Part shown: piece after piece, positions 3,522-47,332 of the stretch
Position numbering within the stretch: the stretch's first letter is position 1
Layout of the letters: each line of letters opens with the position of its first letter
Sequence record: JX128257
Strand: one strand, 5' to 3'
Source: Escherichia phage ECML-4
Length of the DNA stretch: 64,000 nucleotides
Made by a program: the position numbers and the translations under genes
The notes under the pieces: model-generated
Seen by the model: the letters and a program-made list of their open reading frames with translations, nothing else
What the model was told of the DNA's origin: nothing
Database searches by the model: none

Positions 3522-4075
3522 TTGGTCAGCTCCTGTTCCAGCTGATTAACAAAGGAAGAAACATAATCTGGATCGAGCACTTGGATGTTACGTTTGGCTT
3601 CGTTTTTGTTTATTGCATCATCGTGATATGTAATGCCAGTCAGTCCGTAATTCGCGATGATTGTCGCGTCGTCCATAGCGCCAAGGCCATATGCCAAACG
3701 GATAGCGCGGGGATCTGTTTCATTCCCAAATTCGTCAACGTAGTATTTTACGTCCCACATCCCATCGAGACCATAACGAGCAGTTAGCTCTTCAATGATT
3801 CTGCGTTCTGGTTTTGGCCAGTCTTCTGTGATATCCATGATACCATTGATAAGACATGGTATCCAGAACAACTCGAAGGAACCATAGACCCGTTCCGCAA
3901 AAGACCTTGGGGTTTCCCCATCGAAAACAGTATAAGGCAGGAGAAGCCCTTCTATGTCCCGAATTTTCTTAACAACCATAACCCGTCGTGTCAAGTTTTG
4001 CAACAGGACTTGGTCATTTTCTTTGACACCAATTAGTTGATGCCATACGAGTGGAAATTTCTCAAAATATTTCAT
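3518..4075 (-). CDS. hypothetical protein (virion morphogenesis cluster)
   Basis: 185 aa ORF in structural operon; no recognisable motif. Confidence 0.4.
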   Translation of the reverse strand: MKYFEKFPLVWHQLIGVKENDQVLLQNLTRRVMVVKKIRDIEGLLLPYTVFDGETPRSFAERVYGSFELFWIPCLINGIMDITEDWPKPERRIIEELTARYGLDGMWDVKYYVDEFGNETDPRAIRLAYGLGAMDDATIIANYGLTGITYHDDAINKNEAKRNIQVLDPDYVSSFVNQLEQELTK

Positions 4076-4087
4076 GGCATCTTCCCC

Positions 4088-5056
4088 TTAGAAGCTGTCG
4101 CCTTCGGTATCAAAGCGGCCTTTGTGCAACGGTTCCAGTTCAATAAATGTCATGTCAATCTGGGTTGACACGATGCTATCATCTTTGTGGACAGCATATG
4201 AAGAATCCGGCGTCTCGTTGACAAACATGTTTGACAAAACACAAGTCGATATTCGATGTAACCATTTATTGCGTTCCCCCTGCACCATGAACGTGATGTC
4301 AAATGTGGAAGGGTGTAGGTAGAATGCACTGGAATTCTTGTTGTATTTGTATTCAGGGTACATATGCATCTTGAACAGACGAATGATCTCCCTCACCATT
4401 TTCGCCTCTTTTTGAGATCGAGGGGTGAATTTAAAGGTGAATGGAATTTCGCGGTTGCGCACCCCTTGGAATATCATTTCTACATATGGGTTTGTCATTG
4501 TGCCCGTGAACAACTCTAATGTATCGTGAGCATTAATTGTTGGTAAGAACGGAATTGCTTCCGAAGCAGATTGAATCGCCTTTGTGGCAGCAAATCGCCC
4601 CATTTCTTTTCCCACGTTTAATGCATCGCCAAGTTTGAATTGGCTCATATCTTGGGCAGCGCGGGATAAGAATTGGGCACCCATACCAGCTAATCCTAAC
4701 TCAGAGCCGTTCCAACCAACGCCATAGTTGGTTGTAATAGATTCAGGCATGCATAACACTATGGACTCGTTAGAGCGGACATGACGCGCCCAAGCATATT
4801 TGCTGATAGAACCTGATTTAGAACCATAAACCACAGGAGTTTTTCCCAGTGGGTTTTGGATAGGGTTCTCAACGGTTTGAGTCGTTGTGTCGCCGTATGA
4901 CGATCCTGATATGCGGTTAATATTGAATAAAACATAATGACCGAGGGTTTTACCCCCCGTTATATCCAACGGATAGACCAATTGCTTCTGAGACTTGGCC
5001 AAGCCTTTTGTGTTCAGAACTTTGATCTTATCGATGGTCGACTTGAAATTCGCCAT
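4088..5056 (-). CDS. hypothetical virion/baseplate-associated protein
   Basis: 322 aa ORF, first gene of the minus-strand structural operon. Confidence 0.4.
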   Translation of the reverse strand: MANFKSTIDKIKVLNTKGLAKSQKQLVYPLDITGGKTLGHYVLFNINRISGSSYGDTTTQTVENPIQNPLGKTPVVYGSKSGSISKYAWARHVRSNESIVLCMPESITTNYGVGWNGSELGLAGMGAQFLSRAAQDMSQFKLGDALNVGKEMGRFAATKAIQSASEAIPFLPTINAHDTLELFTGTMTNPYVEMIFQGVRNREIPFTFKFTPRSQKEAKMVREIIRLFKMHMYPEYKYNKNSSAFYLHPSTFDITFMVQGERNKWLHRISTCVLSNMFVNETPDSSYAVHKDDSIVSTQIDMTFIELEPLHKGRFDTEGDSF

Positions 5057-6348: not shown

Positions 6349-6870
6349 TTAATTCCTTACTTTGTCAGGATTAGATAAGATTTGTTCGTATCCGACTTCT
6401 CCTTGATAGTCGAAAACATGCTGAAGAATCGCCATATCTTCTACCATCCGATAAACTTCAATTCCAGCGTTCATCAATTTTTTGATTCCATCCATAATAC
6501 GATATGGCTCACGATAATATACTTTATCGATTTTACCGCTATCTATTATCTTTTGAGTGCAATTAGGGCAAGGACTATGTGTCACAAACATAACCAACCC
6601 TGTGAAATCATCTGCATTTTCGGGGATACGCATTAGAGCATTTTCCTCCGCATGAACGACACACGGGTTTGTAACAATTTGCCCGTGTTGTTCCATCTCA
6701 CAAACATTCGGCATGCCAGGAGGCGTTCCGTTCCATCCTATAGCCACAGGCTGATCAGTTTCAGGGTTTACAATAACACAACCGACTTGCAGACGCCGAG
6801 CATAACTGGTTACACCATATGCTGCAGCTGATCGCATATGAGCAAACATCATACGTGGTTTGATAGCCAT
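6349..6870 (-). CDS. cd: dCMP deaminase (cytidine/deoxycytidylate deaminase family)
   Basis: zinc-binding signatures CVVHAEENA (H-x-E) and HSPCPNC (PC-x2-C); 173 aa. Confidence 0.85.
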   Translation of the reverse strand: MAIKPRMMFAHMRSAAAYGVTSYARRLQVGCVIVNPETDQPVAIGWNGTPPGMPNVCEMEQHGQIVTNPCVVHAEENALMRIPENADDFTGLVMFVTHSPCPNCTQKIIDSGKIDKVYYREPYRIMDGIKKLMNAGIEVYRMVEDMAILQHVFDYQGEVGYEQILSNPDKVRN

Positions 6871-7274
6871 TATTCACCTCTCAGAAGACGAGCGAAGCGT
6901 TCAACAATGCGATTGCGCGGCTTCTCGGGAACGATGTCTTCTACCGTAATGGTCAGTGTGTAGTTTGTAGAAAAATCGCAATCGGACTTTGTGATGATTT
7001 TCCGTTCACCAGGCAGCGGATACATCGTTAAAGCCCTATCGACGGAATCTAGAGAAGAACCGACCAAGTCCACCACCCTTTGGTGCCCGAACGATAATGG
7101 ACCTACGACATCCTTTTCAAAAATTTCAATCACGTCGGTGACTAACACACCCAATGCAAGTCTTAGTCCAAGGTTCTGATTTTTATCCCCTAGTGTGTAC
7201 ACAAACTGCCGACGCCACAACTCTTTCCGGTCTTCAGAACGGACGAGAGAATAATTCAAATGGTATTGTTTCAT
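6870..7274 (-). CDS. hypothetical protein
   Basis: 134 aa ORF, 1-nt overlap with downstream gene. Confidence 0.4.
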   Translation of the reverse strand: MKQYHLNYSLVRSEDRKELWRRQFVYTLGDKNQNLGLRLALGVLVTDVIEIFEKDVVGPLSFGHQRVVDLVGSSLDSVDRALTMYPLPGERKIITKSDCDFSTNYTLTITVEDIVPEKPRNRIVERFARLLRGE

Positions 7275-43074: not shown

Positions 43075-43308
43075 TTAAGAAACGATAACCGTCGCATCAG
43101 AATTAATTGCCTTAACCCATCCCACCGTCGGCGGGGTTAAAACGACCATATTTCCTTGATATATGATATGCGCGTTGTTGCCCGTTGGAGCGCTGGGGCT
43201 ATCACACAGATACACAGAACCGTGAGTCACTTGAAGAGTTTTCAAAGATGTGCCGTCTGAGACTTGCGTCCATGTACTTGCGTTTGGTGTGATCTTAGCA
43301 GTTGCCAT
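43075..43308 (-). CDS. hypothetical small protein
   Basis: 77 aa ORF just downstream of the tRNA-cluster terminator. Confidence 0.35.
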   Translation of the reverse strand: MATAKITPNASTWTQVSDGTSLKTLQVTHGSVYLCDSPSAPTGNNAHIIYQGNMVVLTPPTVGWVKAINSDATVIVS

Positions 43309-43355
43309 AATAGACCTCCTTTACAAGTCAGATCTATTTATTACAGACAAAAAGA

Positions 43356-43378
43356 AGCCCGATCGTCCTGATCGGGCT
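43356..43378 (-). terminator. terminator downstream of tRNA cluster
   Basis: AGCCCGATC-GTCCT-GATCGGGCT hairpin; minus strand followed by TTCTTTTT. Confidence 0.5.
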
Positions 43379-43599
43379 ATATTAAACCATCGTGGGGATG
43401 GAAAGACTACTCACAGCAATTTCTGATAATGGGCGTTGGGAGAGTGCGTCGGGAATCGAACCCGAAACCGTCAGGACAATGAAAAGCTATTGCATTTCAC
43501 TTTGCATATCCTCCGGCTTTCTTAACTTCCTTAACCCCAGATTGTTATGAAGTCGGCATGCACACCTTCTTCATCTTCAGGAAGTCACACTCATTGTTC

Positions 43600-43675
43600 T
43601 GGTTGCTTCAACTGGATTCGAACCAGTGACCTCTCCCTTATCAGGGGAACGCTCTACCTACTGAGCTATGAAGCA
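43600..43675 (-). tRNA. tRNA-Ile (anticodon GAT)
   Basis: hand-folded cloverleaf: acceptor TGCTTCA/TGAAGCA, D stem GCTC/GAGC, anticodon stem TTCCC/GGGAG with loop CTGATAA, T arm ACTGG-TTCGAAT-CCAGT, CCA encoded. Confidence 0.8.
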
Positions 43676-43678
43676 ATT

Positions 43679-43767
43679 TGGCGGAAGGTGAAGGATTCGA
43701 ACCTTCGGGGGCTAAAAGCCCCACTCGATTAGCAGTCGAGTCCCTTAAACCTCTCGGGCAACCTTCC
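43679..43767 (-). tRNA. tRNA-Ser (anticodon GCT), type II
   Basis: acceptor GGAAGGT/ACCTTCC, anticodon stem CTCGA/TCGAG with loop CTGCTAA, long variable arm, T arm GAAGG-TTCGAAT-CCTTC, CCA encoded. Confidence 0.8.
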
Positions 43768-44052
43768 GTATACTGCGCCTCGGTCAAGAATTTTCCAAGC
43801 CATGACCTAAATCTGGGTTCTTGACCTGACCGAGCGTAATTTGGACGGGCTTCACACCCGATTGTGCATTTGATCTGCCGTAGCCCAACTCCCCGCGCCG
43901 AAGCGCCGATTGGTTAACTGGCACCAGTGCCTTCTGGTTCGATCTCCTGTAACTTTACAGGCTTTGCGCCCGACCATTTCTGGAAGTTGAGGCATCGTTC
44001 CCGATGTGGAGTCCCCTCATTTTACACAGCTGGCTGCAACGCTTACTGTGTT

Positions 44053-44136
44053 TGGTGTGAGTGGATGGATTCGAACCACCGCGCTGTTACGGGGAGATTT
44101 ACAGTCTCCTGCATTCGACCGCTCTGCCACACTCAC
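44053..44136 (-). tRNA. tRNA-Tyr (anticodon GTA), type II
   Basis: acceptor GTGAGTG/CACTCAC, anticodon stem GGAGA/TCTCC with loop CTGTAAA, 12-nt variable region, T arm GGTGG-TTCGAAT-CCATC, CCA encoded. Confidence 0.75.
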
Positions 44137-44392
44137 ATTTGGTCTACCACCACGTGCTGGGCCACGCTCGAGGACATCGGCCATCCTTCCTCAGCTAATC
44201 CACGCGGCGGTAGATTTAGATCAGAGTGTACGGTGTAGCATTCCGCAGGGGTGCACCTACTGTAGCCCTTTCACTCTGAAATTGTATGAAGTAGGTCTCA
44301 CTCCCCTGGGTATCTGTATCCTGCAGCCTTACATTGGCAGCTATCGCGCGATTCGCACTTCCGAAGGCGCTTCGAGATACTCTACTTCAATT

Positions 44393-44468
44393 TGGCGACG
44401 ATGGCAGGACTTGAACCTGCGACATATGGATTAACAGTCCACCGTTCTACCGACTGAACTACATCGTC
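44393..44468 (-). tRNA. tRNA-Asn (anticodon GTT)
   Basis: acceptor GACGATG/CATCGTC, D stem GTTC/GAAC, anticodon stem GTGGA/TCCAT with loop CTGTTAA, T arm GCAGG-TTCAAGT-CCTGC, CCA encoded. Confidence 0.8.
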
Positions 44469-44469
44469 A

Positions 44470-44670
44470 TTATCCGTGCTTGTTTGCTTCAATTGCCCTT
44501 AATTGAGCATCAGCGTCAGCTTTGGTGTCATGTGTCCCAAGAACCTTCGTCTTGGTGTGGTCAAGGACAACCCACTTGTCGCCTCGCTTTTCAACAAACT
44601 CAACAATCTCTTTGTTGTCGGTAGCGAGGCCATCCCACTCAGCAAGAAACTCACCGAACGTTTTCATCAT
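44470..44670 (-). CDS. small hypothetical protein embedded in tRNA cluster (66 aa)
   Basis: track ORF begins with TTG; more likely start is the ATG-ATG pair at 44670 preceded by GGTGAG. Confidence 0.35.
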   Translation of the reverse strand: MMKTFGEFLAEWDGLATDNKEIVEFVEKRGDKWVVLDHTKTKVLGTHDTKADADAQLRAIEANKHG

Positions 44671-44787
44671 ACTCACCAATTGTTTATTGAACAACTGGTT
44701 TATTTAGGTGCTCCCGAGGCGGTATTTTAATCCCGCGATCCCATCTCGCCTGCCGTAGACCAGAGCATGCTGACAGTCCAACATATT

Positions 44788-44863
44788 TGGTGACCCTGGC
44801 TGGACTTGAACCAGCGACCAATCGATTATGAGTCGACTGCTCTAACCACTGAGCTACGGGGCC
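44788..44863 (-). tRNA. tRNA-Met (anticodon CAT)
   Basis: acceptor GGCCCCG/CAGGGTC (one C-A mismatch), D stem GCTC/GAGC, anticodon stem GTCGA/TCGAT with loop CTCATAA, T arm GCTGG-TTCAAGT-CCAGC, CCA encoded. Confidence 0.7.
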
Positions 44864-44971
44864 AAAATTGGCGGGGTCTGAGGCTTTTCACCTCACCTGC
44901 TGGATTGGCCTCCAGCTGTTCTCTCTGGGGACTCGCTGTCCGGACAGCTATCCCTTAAACTATCGCCCCTT

Positions 44972-45086
44972 AATTCATATTGCTGTGGGTAATACCAAAG
45001 CGGAGGTTTGGAATCTCTCGCCCTATAGCGACCTTTAAACCGTTTGATCAGTCCGATCCAAAGGACTACCCACAGCAATATGAATT
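44972..45086. repeat. 20-bp perfect inverted repeat flanking a 75-nt loop
   Basis: AATTCATATTGCTGTGGGTA (44972-44991) and its exact reverse complement (45067-45086); a 14-bp palindrome GCTGTCCGGACAGC lies just upstream (44935-44948). Confidence 0.8.
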
Positions 45087-45293
45087 TGTTGTGTCCAATC
45101 AAGGACTGTCAACCTTTTATCCCGTTTGTGCATGATCAGTTCATGCAGGCCTCTTTGTGCGCCTCACGGCAACGCGCTTCTGTAGGTCATTGACTTGCAC
45201 CGTAGTCTCACCACAGGCGTTTATTTTTCCAGGGCTTTCCACTTACAAGTCTTAACCAGATCGGGATACGGGCTTGTAAGATCAGATTGGACA

Positions 45294-45371
45294 CAACTTT
45301 GATGGCTCTAGGACTAAAGATCCCGCGTCACCCATAGACTTGGTTTATAAAATCTAGAGCCATCAAAGTTG
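45294..45371. repeat. 18-bp perfect inverted repeat flanking a 42-nt loop
   Basis: CAACTTTGATGGCTCTAG (45294-45311) and CTAGAGCCATCAAAGTTG (45354-45371); an 8-bp hairpin CTTACAAG/CTTGTAAG lies upstream (45242-45280). Confidence 0.8.
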
Positions 45372-45750
45372 CAACCAATGTCGCAACTCGCACTTCAGCG
45401 TCTTCGTCTCGCTTCAGCACTTGTCCTCTACGCTCGGACCAAACGAGGCTGGCCGACAGAAACATGACACCACTCATCACTAGAGCGAGGATGTGGTTGA
45501 TAGCCACGATGCTATATCTCTGTCGCAGAGTGATCACACTTGTCAGGATGATCACTGTTTTGCGAACTTGAAAATACTGCGCCTGTCTCGGGTTTCCCCT
45601 TAGTTCGGCCTCTCATTGTTCGTCTAGTCAGGGAGCTACCCTTGATGACCAGCTTATTTTGAGATCTTCGCCAGCACCCACTAGTGTCTAGAATATGTAG
45701 GTGTCGAGGTCTGCAAGGCATTGCCCTATTTCATACAACGCTCTCTCAAG

Positions 45751-45888
45751 TACGCAAATCGAAGTTCTCTGGGCTTAACAGGTTCGACCCAACATGTTGT
45801 ATATCGCCTAACTTGCTCATGGGACGGACACATCTGTGTACAGACCTTGAGGGTTAAAAGATATACCCAGAGAACTTCGATTTGCGTA
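45751..45888. repeat. 23-bp perfect inverted repeat flanking a 92-nt loop
   Basis: TACGCAAATCGAAGTTCTCTGGG (45751-45773) and CCCAGAGAACTTCGATTTGCGTA (45866-45888); loop contains a T-loop-like GGTTCGACC. Confidence 0.8.
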
Positions 45889-46477
45889 GCCCTTCACTTG
45901 CCAAAGATCAGGGCTAATAACAAGACTTCGCTCACATCTTTGAGGGCACTCAGTGTACAACAGGCTCCGATATTTCATAGGGCATTACTGCCTCGGATTT
46001 AAGTTGCCTTTCTCCTGAAACTCCATGCAGTCTCGCGTCTGACGCGGAATGCCCTCAAAGATGTGGAGCCGTTTTAGGGAGTCGAACCCAAATGCTTGGC
46101 CAGCGCTGACCTTACATCCCATCTGACTTAGGCAACCCACCTCTGCTTACTCAGGAGCTTATCCCCTTTGGACAGTCAGATATAACGGCTTTGGGATTGG
46201 AGGAAGGACTCGAACCTTCTCATGTACGCTCCTGATTTCTCAGAAGTAGCCTGCTCCCATCGACCTATTAAGTACACGCTCCGCTCATTGTTCGGCGGGA
46301 GCTTATTAATCACACCCTCCCGCCTATTGTTAGTGCGCCGAATTTTGTTATGAGGAATCGGAAGACCTCACTGGTGTATGGCTATTAAGCTACTGCCAGG
46401 AACGTGTTATCATTAGCGATTATTTTTGTGGTCAGTTTCTAAAAACCCGCAAAGTCACGCACAACGAAAACGAAAAC

Positions 46478-46542
46478 CTGTTTGAGTCCTAAACCTACCT
46501 GTCTTGGTCTCACATCGCTATGAGTGGCCAGGACTCAAACAG
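46478..46542. repeat. 13-bp perfect inverted repeat flanking a 39-nt loop
   Basis: CTGTTTGAGTCCT (46478-46490) and AGGACTCAAACAG (46530-46542). Confidence 0.7.
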
Positions 46543-46617
46543 CTTGCCGTTCAGTGAGTTAACTATACTTTGTAACCCGTTATTGATAAAACCTTTTATT
46601 TTTGTTGACGAGGGTGT

Positions 46618-46718
46618 GGAATCGAACCACACTTCTGAGCGCTGCCCCGTGTCACCAATGCACCACCTCACCATCGATTTGCCGGAACTTACGCATCCGG
46701 CCTCGTCCTGTCGGTGTT
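46618..46718 (-). ncRNA. tRNA-like element (perfect 7-bp acceptor stem plus canonical T-arm, non-canonical 101-nt body)
   Basis: GACGAGG (46618-46624) pairs perfectly with CCTCGTC (46712-46718); T-arm-like GTGTGG-AATCGAA-CCACAC at 46625-46643; no standard anticodon arm could be folded. Confidence 0.3.
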
Positions 46719-47332
46719 CTTCTGAATCCGGGAAGATCAGCAGGAACTATGAATCAAGTTAATTCAACCAACAGGAATCCTCGTGTTGCCCTTTGACGCA
46801 ACATTATGAACCCTCTATGAAGACTCATAATGTTGTCGGCGTGATGGAGATTAGCGCCCCCGACCTCCCCTTATATGTTGGTGTCGACTTGCCAACAGGG
46901 TGCTCTCTGATTCTGAGCTAATCACGCTACAACAGGGAGTTTCGTTCTCCGACGGTCAAGTGCGTCCACTGACACCAGCGAGGTGGATATTATGCCTCTA
47001 TTCACACAAGCCCCAGAGACTAGGGGTTCACTGTTTTCGGTTTCAAGCCTACTCACACTGTGCTGTTTCCCTCATGTTTGATACTTTACTGCAAGCCAGC
47101 CAATTTGAAAAATCCTCTCCCCTTTGAATTACACTGCCCACAGCAGTGCGGACGAACCTTCATTCAAAACCGGATGCGCCGAAATGGGCGACTGTGTACC
47201 GGACTGATCAGGTCGACCCAGGAGAGAGCAGGTAATCCCGATCAGGAGGATGAGGAGTAACATCATGTAAAACATAGTGTTCCCTCCCTTCCATGCAACT
47301 AACTTTACCGCATTTATTTATTGAATAAAGCG

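Follow-up and report, generated by a model that had tools for sequence, protein, structure and literature searches.

Does the tRNA region of Escherichia phage ECML-4 encode, besides the tRNAs that decode, an RNA with the shape of a transfer RNA (tRNA) and no anticodon? The question arises at a locus on the minus strand of the 64,000-nucleotide (nt) stretch of ECML-4 DNA (JX128257) analyzed here, which is called the window below. Over the 3.8 kilobases (kb) around this locus the window is 99.6% identical to Salmonella phage STML-13-1 (Kuttervirus, Ackermannviridae), and ~100 related genomes cover at least 80% of that 3.8 kb stretch. A sequence-only reading of the window had described a perfect 7 base pair (bp) pairing, GACGAGG/CCTCGTC, that encloses 101 nt and a hairpin resembling a T arm, and had suggested an intron-containing or degenerate tRNA, or a tRNA-like RNA with a different role. 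The strings it quoted are present in the window, although not at positions 46618–46718, where it had put them; the true span is 46607–46707, 11 nt lower, with GACGAGG-GTGTGG-AATCGAA-CCACAC at 46607–46632 and CCTCGTC at 46701–46707 on the plus strand. The minus strand is the reading strand of the element (5'-GACGAGG ... GUGUGG UUCGAUU CCACAC CCUCGUC A-3'): here the T arm is followed by the 3' strand of the acceptor, and this is also the strand of the five canonical tRNA genes of the region.

Comparison with homologous loci, together with the fold, supports a tRNA-like element with a non-canonical body and moves its 5' boundary inward. We lean, with modest confidence, toward reading the minus-strand segment from 46672 to 46606 as a gene for a tRNA-derived, processed, non-decoding tRNA mimic of 67 nt, of the kind exemplified by rnaC of phage T4. 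The pair of options that fits the locus is the degenerate tRNA and the tRNA-like RNA with another role, and substitutions that appear to preserve structure incline us to the second.

Boundaries of the element and its cassette site

The conserved unit was delimited from 33 unique versions of the locus, taken from GenBank and IMG/VR relatives. It consists of the inner 67 nt, 46672 to 46606 on the minus strand (GGUGAGGUGGUGCAUUGGUGACACGGGGCAGCGCUCAGAAGUGUGGUUCGAUUCCACACCCUCGUCA), hereafter the 67-mer. A covariance model built from the aligned copies finds exactly one copy in each genome that carries the element, and otherwise only weak matches to real tRNAs. Two GenBank records, SeKF_19 and ST2, have a 'tRNA-Ala' annotation over exactly the same 67 nt, and SeKF_64 has a 'tRNA-Ala' call at the site.

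The 67-mer sits between two constant edges. Upstream is a hairpin (GCCGGAUGCGUAAGUUCCGGC, 46681–46701, minus strand) that is kept in all 33 unique stretches and shows only one-sided changes in an alignment of nine sequences; downstream is a sigma-70-like promoter, TTATCA-16-TATAGT (46562–46589, minus strand), which reads TTGTCA-16-TATAGT in other genera. What lies between these edges differs from phage to phage. The site holds the 67-nt element in ~160 of 246 matching records, is empty in May, EspM4VN and bering, contains a different tRNA-like element of ~145 nt (UGCGGUG ... GUCGG-UUCGAAU-CCGAC-CACCGCA) in Marshall and KWBSE43-6, both elements in tandem in the relative L027, an open reading frame (ORF) in L022, and deletion derivatives in PC3, phage 241 and Phi_10. 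The inner 67-nt unit is what moves among these sites, and it is an optional cassette in a highly variable phage tRNA cluster.

The outer 7-mer GACGAGG (46701–46707, minus strand) belongs to the constant upstream flank and is a near-repeat of the inner acceptor strand. It lies upstream of the constant hairpin and is retained where the element is absent, as in May and EspM4VN, where the element is replaced, and where the two are ~190 nt apart, as in L027. Nine combinations of strands are observed, and a mismatch with the 3' strand occurs in two of them for the inner 5' strand versus five for the outer; the A-U double change of phage T751 (GGCGAAG/CUUCGCC) fits the inner strand only. The inner boundary is preferred because the outer strand persists without its 3' partner and mismatches more often. 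The perfect 7-bp pairing of GACGAGG with CCTCGTC thus exists, but the comparative data favor the inner GGUGAGG as the acceptor strand, and the 101-nt boundaries are not supported. By simple arithmetic, a perfect complement to a 7-mer is expected within ~150 nt in ~1% of cases.

A cloverleaf without an anticodon arm

Fifteen unique copies of the 67-mer were aligned and submitted to RNAalifold without guidance, which returned a cloverleaf de novo. All of its parts are on the minus strand. The 5' strand of the acceptor, GGUGAGG (46666–46672), pairs with 46607–46613 over 7 bp; 95.9% of the cells in this stem are paired, and it shows covariation, the variants GGCGAGG/CCUCGCC, GGUGAGG/CCUCGCC and GGCGAAG/CUUCGCC comprising one pair with a two-sided change and two with one-sided changes. 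The U at position −1 is kept in all examined copies. Just after U8-G9 comes the D arm, GUG(C) AUUGGUG (A)CAC (46649–46663), with three pairs, a C.A at 13:22 and GG in the loop; in T751, U11-A24 becomes C-G and the D stem is a perfect GCGC/GCGC. This arm resembles the D arms of type II (Leu/Ser/Tyr) tRNAs.

The interval between the D and T arms is only 17 nt long and holds, in the place of the anticodon arm, a mini-hairpin with a 4-bp stem and a 3-nt loop, GGGC-AGC-GCUC (46637–46647). In this hairpin 98% of cells are paired and the changes are one-sided only (G.U to G-C, U.G to C-G); in RCIP0012 it is re-registered as GGGG-UAGA-UCCC. The hairpin beside the 3' strand is borne out as a T arm (46614–46632), with a 6-bp stem, GUGUGG/CCACAC, and the loop UUCGAUU. 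Together with the 7-bp acceptor it makes a stack of 13 bp, where 12 is usual. Two-sided changes in its stem take the sixth pair from G-C to A-U in RCIP0012 and another G-C to A-U in T751. The loop UUCGAUU is invariant, and only one or two copies depart from the D-loop GG and discriminator A. The 3' strand of the acceptor, CCUCGUC, and the discriminator A (46606–46613) are followed by ACAAAAAUAAAA.

The 67-mer thus retains the acceptor stem, U8, A14, the D-loop GG and the T loop, which form the tRNA 'elbow', and the A discriminator, and it has an 11-nt hairpin instead of a 17-nt anticodon stem-loop. No anticodon arm with a 5-bp stem and a 7-nt loop is present in either the 101-nt or the 67-nt reading. 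The sequence-only reading, which could fold neither a D arm nor an anticodon arm, was right about the latter; from the inner boundary a D arm is present, and it covaries. The 11-nt hairpin resembles a variable arm as found in type II (Leu-like) tRNAs, and the simplest origin for such a molecule would be a type II tRNA gene minus its anticodon arm.

Evidence for and against selection on the fold

Comparisons among the copies provide evidence that this structure has been maintained. First, the chosen structure has 92.5% of cells paired, versus 35–64% when the 3' partners are slid by one to three columns. Second, four pairs change on both sides (one in the acceptor, one in the D stem and two in the T stem), a number reached by none of 500 shuffles. 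Third, of the 12 positions that separate T751 from the common Kuttervirus form, 10 lie in stems, and T751 has all 21 pairs intact, including the repaired 13:22; simulations with the same number and type of substitutions give P = 0.004–0.008. Every stem change in T751, RCIP0012 and Ag3 keeps pairing. The cloverleaf is the minimum free energy (MFE) fold, or close to it, for the Ag3 and T751 copies, and lies 2.3 kcal/mol above the MFE for the copy in the window.

Several observations weigh on the other side. As a single sequence the window copy is no more stable than its shuffles (z = +0.4). The covariation comes from only two well-diverged lineages, the T751 type and RCIP0012, the other copies being more than 94% identical, and 11 of the 12 changes in T751 are transitions, which wobble pairing readily tolerates. 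The 67-mer is absent from May, EspM4VN and bering and internally deleted in PC3, phage 241 and Phi_10, and in the Kuttervirus sub-lineage of SeHz-1, S115 and SPTD1 the acceptor stem has a U.U, accompanied by a T-stem mismatch in SeHz-1 and SPTD1 and by a 1-nt deletion in the T arm of S115. No CCA is encoded by the 67-mer, the 3' side of which is A-ACAAAAAU; each of the five canonical tRNAs of the cluster does encode one. No promoter was identified upstream of it, no close relative that could be its parent was found among the 46 unique tRNAs of related phages and T4, which show weak generic similarity only, and the literature yielded no report of non-coding RNAs, transcriptomes or RNA processing in Ackermannviridae.

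Homologues outside this family did not add to the comparison. Two pattern scans of metagenomes (JGI) found nothing, 5,426 E. coli genomes contain no match to the 67-mer, and of the 16 contigs from IMG/VR at least some are isolates already in the phage collection; all covariation therefore rests on GenBank Ackermannviridae. Because many relatives have lost, truncated or mutated it, the 67-mer is dispensable. Its fold seems to have been kept by selection in several lineages and to be decaying or lost in others.

The same data bear on the possibility that the locus is an inert tRNA pseudogene, which had its anticodon arm deleted, has no function and is slowly decaying, with an appearance of conservation that results from short divergence and transition bias. 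This is a serious possibility that we nevertheless hold to be doubtful. It would account for the independent loss, truncation or disruption of the element in many relatives, for the missing CCA, for the rejection of the element by ARAGORN and Rfam and for the low information in copies that are mostly more than 94% identical, and the locus is prone to recombination, as seen from deletions between short GGTG repeats. However, the anticodon-less form is common to the Kuttervirus, Agtrevirus and Taipeivirus copies, and two diverged lineages keep or improve pairing at every stem change (simulated P < 0.01), with three double changes in T751, one in RCIP0012 and a repaired D-stem mismatch. The T loop, D-loop GG, U8 and A14 are intact, and neither the 5,426 E. 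coli genomes nor the 46 unique phage tRNAs offer an identifiable intact parental gene. The hallmark of a pseudogene, stem changes that ignore pairing, is not found in T751, RCIP0012 or Ag3 (P < 0.01) and is seen in SeHz-1, S115, SPTD1 and the deletion derivatives.

Relationship to tRNAs, tmRNA and T4 small RNAs

By its 7-bp acceptor stem, its D arm with GG and its T arm with a T-Psi-C-type loop the 67-mer has traits of a canonical tRNA; it lacks an anticodon arm and is not recognized by tRNA models. ARAGORN, searching for tRNAs and transfer-messenger RNA (tmRNA), does not call the element, either in the window or in 13 related loci, which include all element carriers scanned. Rfam likewise gives no RF00005, tmRNA or intron call for it, either at the gathering score and E<=10 over 5.5 kb or at E<=10 over 126 nt, and no match to YrlA or any other family at the element. 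The suggestion of an intron-containing tRNA fails, as no anticodon stem-loop flanks any insert: neither the 101-nt nor the 67-nt reading contains anticodon-stem halves, and Rfam detects no group I intron or other intron family and no tRNA at E<=10. The tmRNA option falls as well, since ARAGORN reports none and the only part that the tmRNA models of Rfam match is the 17-nt T arm, at 7.7–9.7 bits versus gathering scores of 84. A protein-coding reading was also rejected; neither Pfam nor PHROG gives a match for the three ORFs that overlap the 67-mer, and their frames would be disrupted by the indels seen in relatives.

Among ordinary tRNAs the closest likeness is to the type II (Leu-like) form. 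Compared with T4 tRNA-Leu, the 67-mer shares the 7-bp acceptor, U8-G9, a 3-bp D stem with a 13:22 mismatch, A14, the D-loop GG, a short, variable-arm-like stem with a 3-nt loop, UUCGAUU and the discriminator A. It differs in having no anticodon stem-loop and no CCA, in its 6-bp T stem and 13-bp stack, and in being rejected by ARAGORN and RF00005.

T4 encodes two small stable RNAs, rnaC (species 1, 139 nt) and rnaD (species 2, 119 nt), whose roles are unknown (PMC3014915). Like the 67-mer, both are encoded in a phage tRNA cluster and on the tRNA strand. The T arm of rnaC, CCGGG-UUCGAAU-CCCGG, is followed by a strand that pairs with the 5' end of the same RNA (CGAUUCG/CGUUUCG); rnaC also has a non-tRNA body, no anticodon and no encoded CCA, and its 3' end is ...ACA as in the 67-mer. 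A further element of the window, described below, resembles rnaC in being the last gene of its cluster. The T4 RNAs, however, have roughly double the length of the 67-mer, two U.U mismatches occur in the terminal helix of rnaC, and a recognizable D arm and elbow are kept only in the 67-mer. The covariance model has no match in the T4 tRNA region at E<=10, and by eye only the T loop corresponds. The 67-mer therefore appears to share the design of T4 rnaC and is not a demonstrable homologue of it.

Non-decoding tRNA mimics occur elsewhere. They include the MHV68 vtRNAs, MALAT1 mascRNA, the 'tRNA-Other' of Bacillus cereus and the tRNA-like domain of bacterial YrlA, which are cloverleaves processed by RNase P/Z and CCA-adding enzymes, some of them acting mainly as processing signals. 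To our knowledge all of these retain some equivalent of an anticodon arm, unlike the 67-mer, and they come from different hosts and genomic contexts.

Proposed maturation and alternative readings

If the 67-mer is a processed tRNA mimic, it would be transcribed inside a polycistronic precursor of the tRNA region. RNase P would cut after the conserved U(−1), RNase E would cut in the A-rich trailer and be followed by 3' trimming, and the host enzyme would add CCA to the 3' end. The mature molecule could then work in trans: being stable and shaped like a tRNA, it would engage tRNA-binding proteins and not the ribosome.

A different view of the same features is that the fold is a cis-acting processing signal, a form of 'tRNA punctuation' that only directs RNase P/RNase E cuts and leaves the 67-mer as a by-product, as with MALAT1 and mascRNA. 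Cutting here would then fix where the upstream structured RNA ends on its 3' side and detach that RNA from the promoter and small-RNA unit that follow. The position of the element agrees with this, as it ends the upstream non-coding unit and directly precedes the conserved promoter, with no intrinsic terminator between them, and the alternative ~145-nt cassette of Marshall also ends in a T arm and acceptor stem. An acceptor/T-arm minihelix is, moreover, a sufficient substrate for RNase P, yet that sufficiency leaves the D arm and elbow nucleotides, which are also conserved and covarying, without a reason, and the empty-site phages May and EspM4VN manage without any such signal. We regard punctuation as the sole function as quite improbable.

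That the 101-nt outer structure is itself the functional unit, a GACGAGG/CCUCGUC acceptor around a long or intron-containing tRNA or a tmRNA-like RNA, is extremely improbable: although the outer pairing is perfect in the window, Ag3 and SKML-39 and is used by the MFE fold of the 102-mer (z = −2.1), so that the fold is energetically fine, the comparative data argue against it, as the outer strand lacks a 3' partner in many phages and stands ~190 nt from the element in L027, an A.C or other mismatch affects five of nine strand combinations, the inner strand is the one that accommodates the double change of T751, and there is no anticodon arm, intron family, tmRNA or tag ORF.

Additional tRNA-like RNAs in the window and in relatives

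The 67-mer, as a putative tRNA mimic, has company: it is one member of a set of tRNA-shaped, anticodon-less RNAs in the cluster. The GTTCRANTC T-loop motif has 11 matches in the 64 kb window, nine of which lie on the minus strand within 43453–46627; these nine are the five canonical tRNAs and four orphans. Because the matches cluster in this way, on the tRNA strand and in the tRNA region, the orphan T arms are not chance occurrences. The three orphans other than the 67-mer had been picked out from the sequence as similar hairpins, and they prove to be real, near the positions then given (43449–43465, 46075–46091 and 46203–46219, all on the minus strand), and to be tRNA-like RNAs of the same kind.

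The first is a tRNA-like RNA of ~150 nt with a four-way junction (43441–43592, minus strand), which is the final gene of the tRNA cluster, ahead of the cluster terminator at 43378–43356. It has the acceptor GAGUGUG/CGCACUC, the T arm UCGGG-UUCGAUU-CCCGA, two large arms and the tail UCCCA, and the inspected records do not annotate it. Among Kuttervirus, Agtrevirus and Taipeivirus, 18 of its 41 predicted pairs change on both sides. Its acceptor variants GAGUGUG, GGGCGUG, GGGUGCG and GGGGUAU are each complementary to their own 3' strand, and in KWBSE43-6 complementarity holds with an acceptor of completely different sequence; the loops AAGGUGUGCAUGCC and GUGAAAUGCAAAUAGCUUUC are conserved.

The second is a four-way-junction RNA of 126 nt (46064–46189, minus strand) whose ends pair as GCCGUU/AACGGC, followed by U-CCA, and whose T arm has a 3-bp stem, GGG/CCC, and the loop UUCGACU. 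It is 93–100% identical in nearly all of 197 Ackermannviridae records regardless of upstream content, and is far more conserved than its own flanks. Its changes are one-sided only, and the sole broken pair is a U.U seen in one sequence. The 10-mer CCUGAGUAAG occurs both in this RNA and in T4 rnaD, perhaps by coincidence.

The third is a mini tRNA-like RNA of 69 nt (46192–46260, minus strand; AUGGGAG ... GAAGG-UUCGAGU-CCUUC CUCCAAU C CCA), the body of which is a single GAAA-capped hairpin. Its T stem covaries to GGAGG/CCUCC in Taipeivirus-type copies, where the body differs and the 5' strand is unclear.

Relatives carry other unusual tRNA-like genes. These were seen in the Ag3 locus (L005) at ~6881–6945 and 6608–6690, in L001 at 4677–4760 and in the Marshall locus (L007) at 6910–6993. 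They include an anticodon-less mini RNA of 62 nt (UGGGUGG.../UCACCCA G CCC) and an 84-nt 'tRNA-Ile(GAU)' whose T stem has 6 bp, giving the same 7/6 acceptor/T architecture as the 67-mer. The alternative ~145-nt cassette, which is absent from the window, is at ~4059–4203 in Marshall and has equivalents in L011, L013 and L027; it has the acceptor UGCGGUG/CACCGCA, UA, a 5-bp D arm with GG, an insert of ~67 nt at the place of the anticodon loop, and a T arm. In Hercules, PhaxI and SeKF_19, 'tRNA-OTHER/Undet' calls follow tRNA-Ser.

A broader proposal, which we consider unlikely, is that Ackermannviridae carry a set of selected non-decoding tRNA mimics that are matured by the tRNA machinery and act on tRNA-binding proteins, the 67-mer possibly being chargeable. 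Such a set may consist of the 67-mer, the 69-nt, 126-nt and ~150-nt elements of the window and the further ones in relatives. For leucyl-tRNA synthetase (LeuRS) the discriminator and tertiary structure are major identity elements, and deletion of the anticodon stem-loop costs the Aquifex enzyme only ~2.5-fold in affinity (PMC2377443). By analogy, and speculatively, the 67-mer, with its A73 discriminator, type-II D arm, intact elbow and lack of an anticodon arm, could meet the needs of a bacterial LeuRS; since the enzyme can do without the anticodon stem-loop, charging of the 67-mer might be possible. Larkin et al. in 2002 reportedly found the same tolerance with an E. coli minimal tRNA-Leu.

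Genomic neighborhood

The element lies within a tRNA region of ~4 kb that is poor in ORFs (~43300–47330), bordered on one side by a conserved ORF of 189 amino acids (aa) and on the other by a small ORF followed by the tail-completion gene. The five canonical tRNA genes (Met, Asn, Tyr, Ser and Ile) occupy 43600–44863 on the minus strand and are called by ARAGORN and by Rfam RF00005 (56–77 bits). The tRNA content of the region differs greatly among relatives. Between tRNA-Met and tRNA-Asn is a small minus-strand ORF (44470–44694) of 74 aa from TTG or 66 aa from ATG (MMKTFGEFLAEWDG...). In several relatives an ORF of 198 bp is annotated immediately upstream of tRNA-Asn; in the Ag3 record it is described as similar to p176 of Aeromonas phage Aeh1. 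The ORF at 44470–44694 is the only plausible protein gene within the cluster.

The non-coding stretch upstream of tRNA-Met contains four long, near-perfect inverted repeats (44972–45086, 45286–45379, 45751–45888 and 45933–46065), with arms of 20–26 bp and spacings of 42–92 nt; the CCA of the 126-nt RNA immediately precedes the last of them. These repeats may be processing hairpins of the RNase III type or further structured RNAs, and a search of them against Rfam gave spurious microRNA matches only. Upstream of the 67-mer, at 46831–46934 on the minus strand, a long-range helix (UGUUGUAGCGUGAU ... AUCACGCCGACAACA) surrounds ~75 nt that include UAGCUCAGAAUCAGAGAGCA, which resembles a tRNA D arm; this may be another structured module.

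Directly downstream of the 67-mer is a candidate small-RNA unit (46465–46589, minus strand) that consists of the promoter described above, a long hairpin and then GUUUUCGUUUUCG. The hairpin is CUGUUUGAGUCC...GGACUCAAACAG, and its stem covaries to GUUUGGGCA.../...UGCUCAAAC in Klebsiella phages. A terminator-like hairpin on the plus strand at 46697–46714 was dismissed, as no plus-strand gene ends there. GenBank records of relatives show short 'hypothetical protein' ORFs on both strands of the non-coding region, some of which overlap tRNA-like elements, suggesting that these ORFs are mis-annotations.

Implications for Ackermannviridae

Taken alone, the 67-mer is of modest significance, a small and dispensable tRNA mimic or relic. 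If it can be charged, it would be an aminoacylated tRNA that never enters the ribosome, and it might then be a sink or decoy for a synthetase, supply a non-ribosomal transferase as its donor, or act as a decoy against defense toxins that target the acceptor end. Phage tRNA clusters are usually interpreted only as sets of tRNAs for codon supply or against host defense. The clusters of Kuttervirus, Agtrevirus and Taipeivirus, known from ~200–250 genomes that include therapeutic and biocontrol phages, hold in addition several conserved tRNA-shaped RNAs, which annotation pipelines miss or mislabel as 'tRNA-Ala', 'tRNA-OTHER' or hypothetical ORFs. These RNAs are natural counterparts of T4 rnaC and rnaD, whose function has stayed unknown for 50 years. 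In contrast to the T4 RNAs, they exist in many natural variants, with elements present or absent and cassettes exchanged, so that near-isogenic phages could be compared to test their function.

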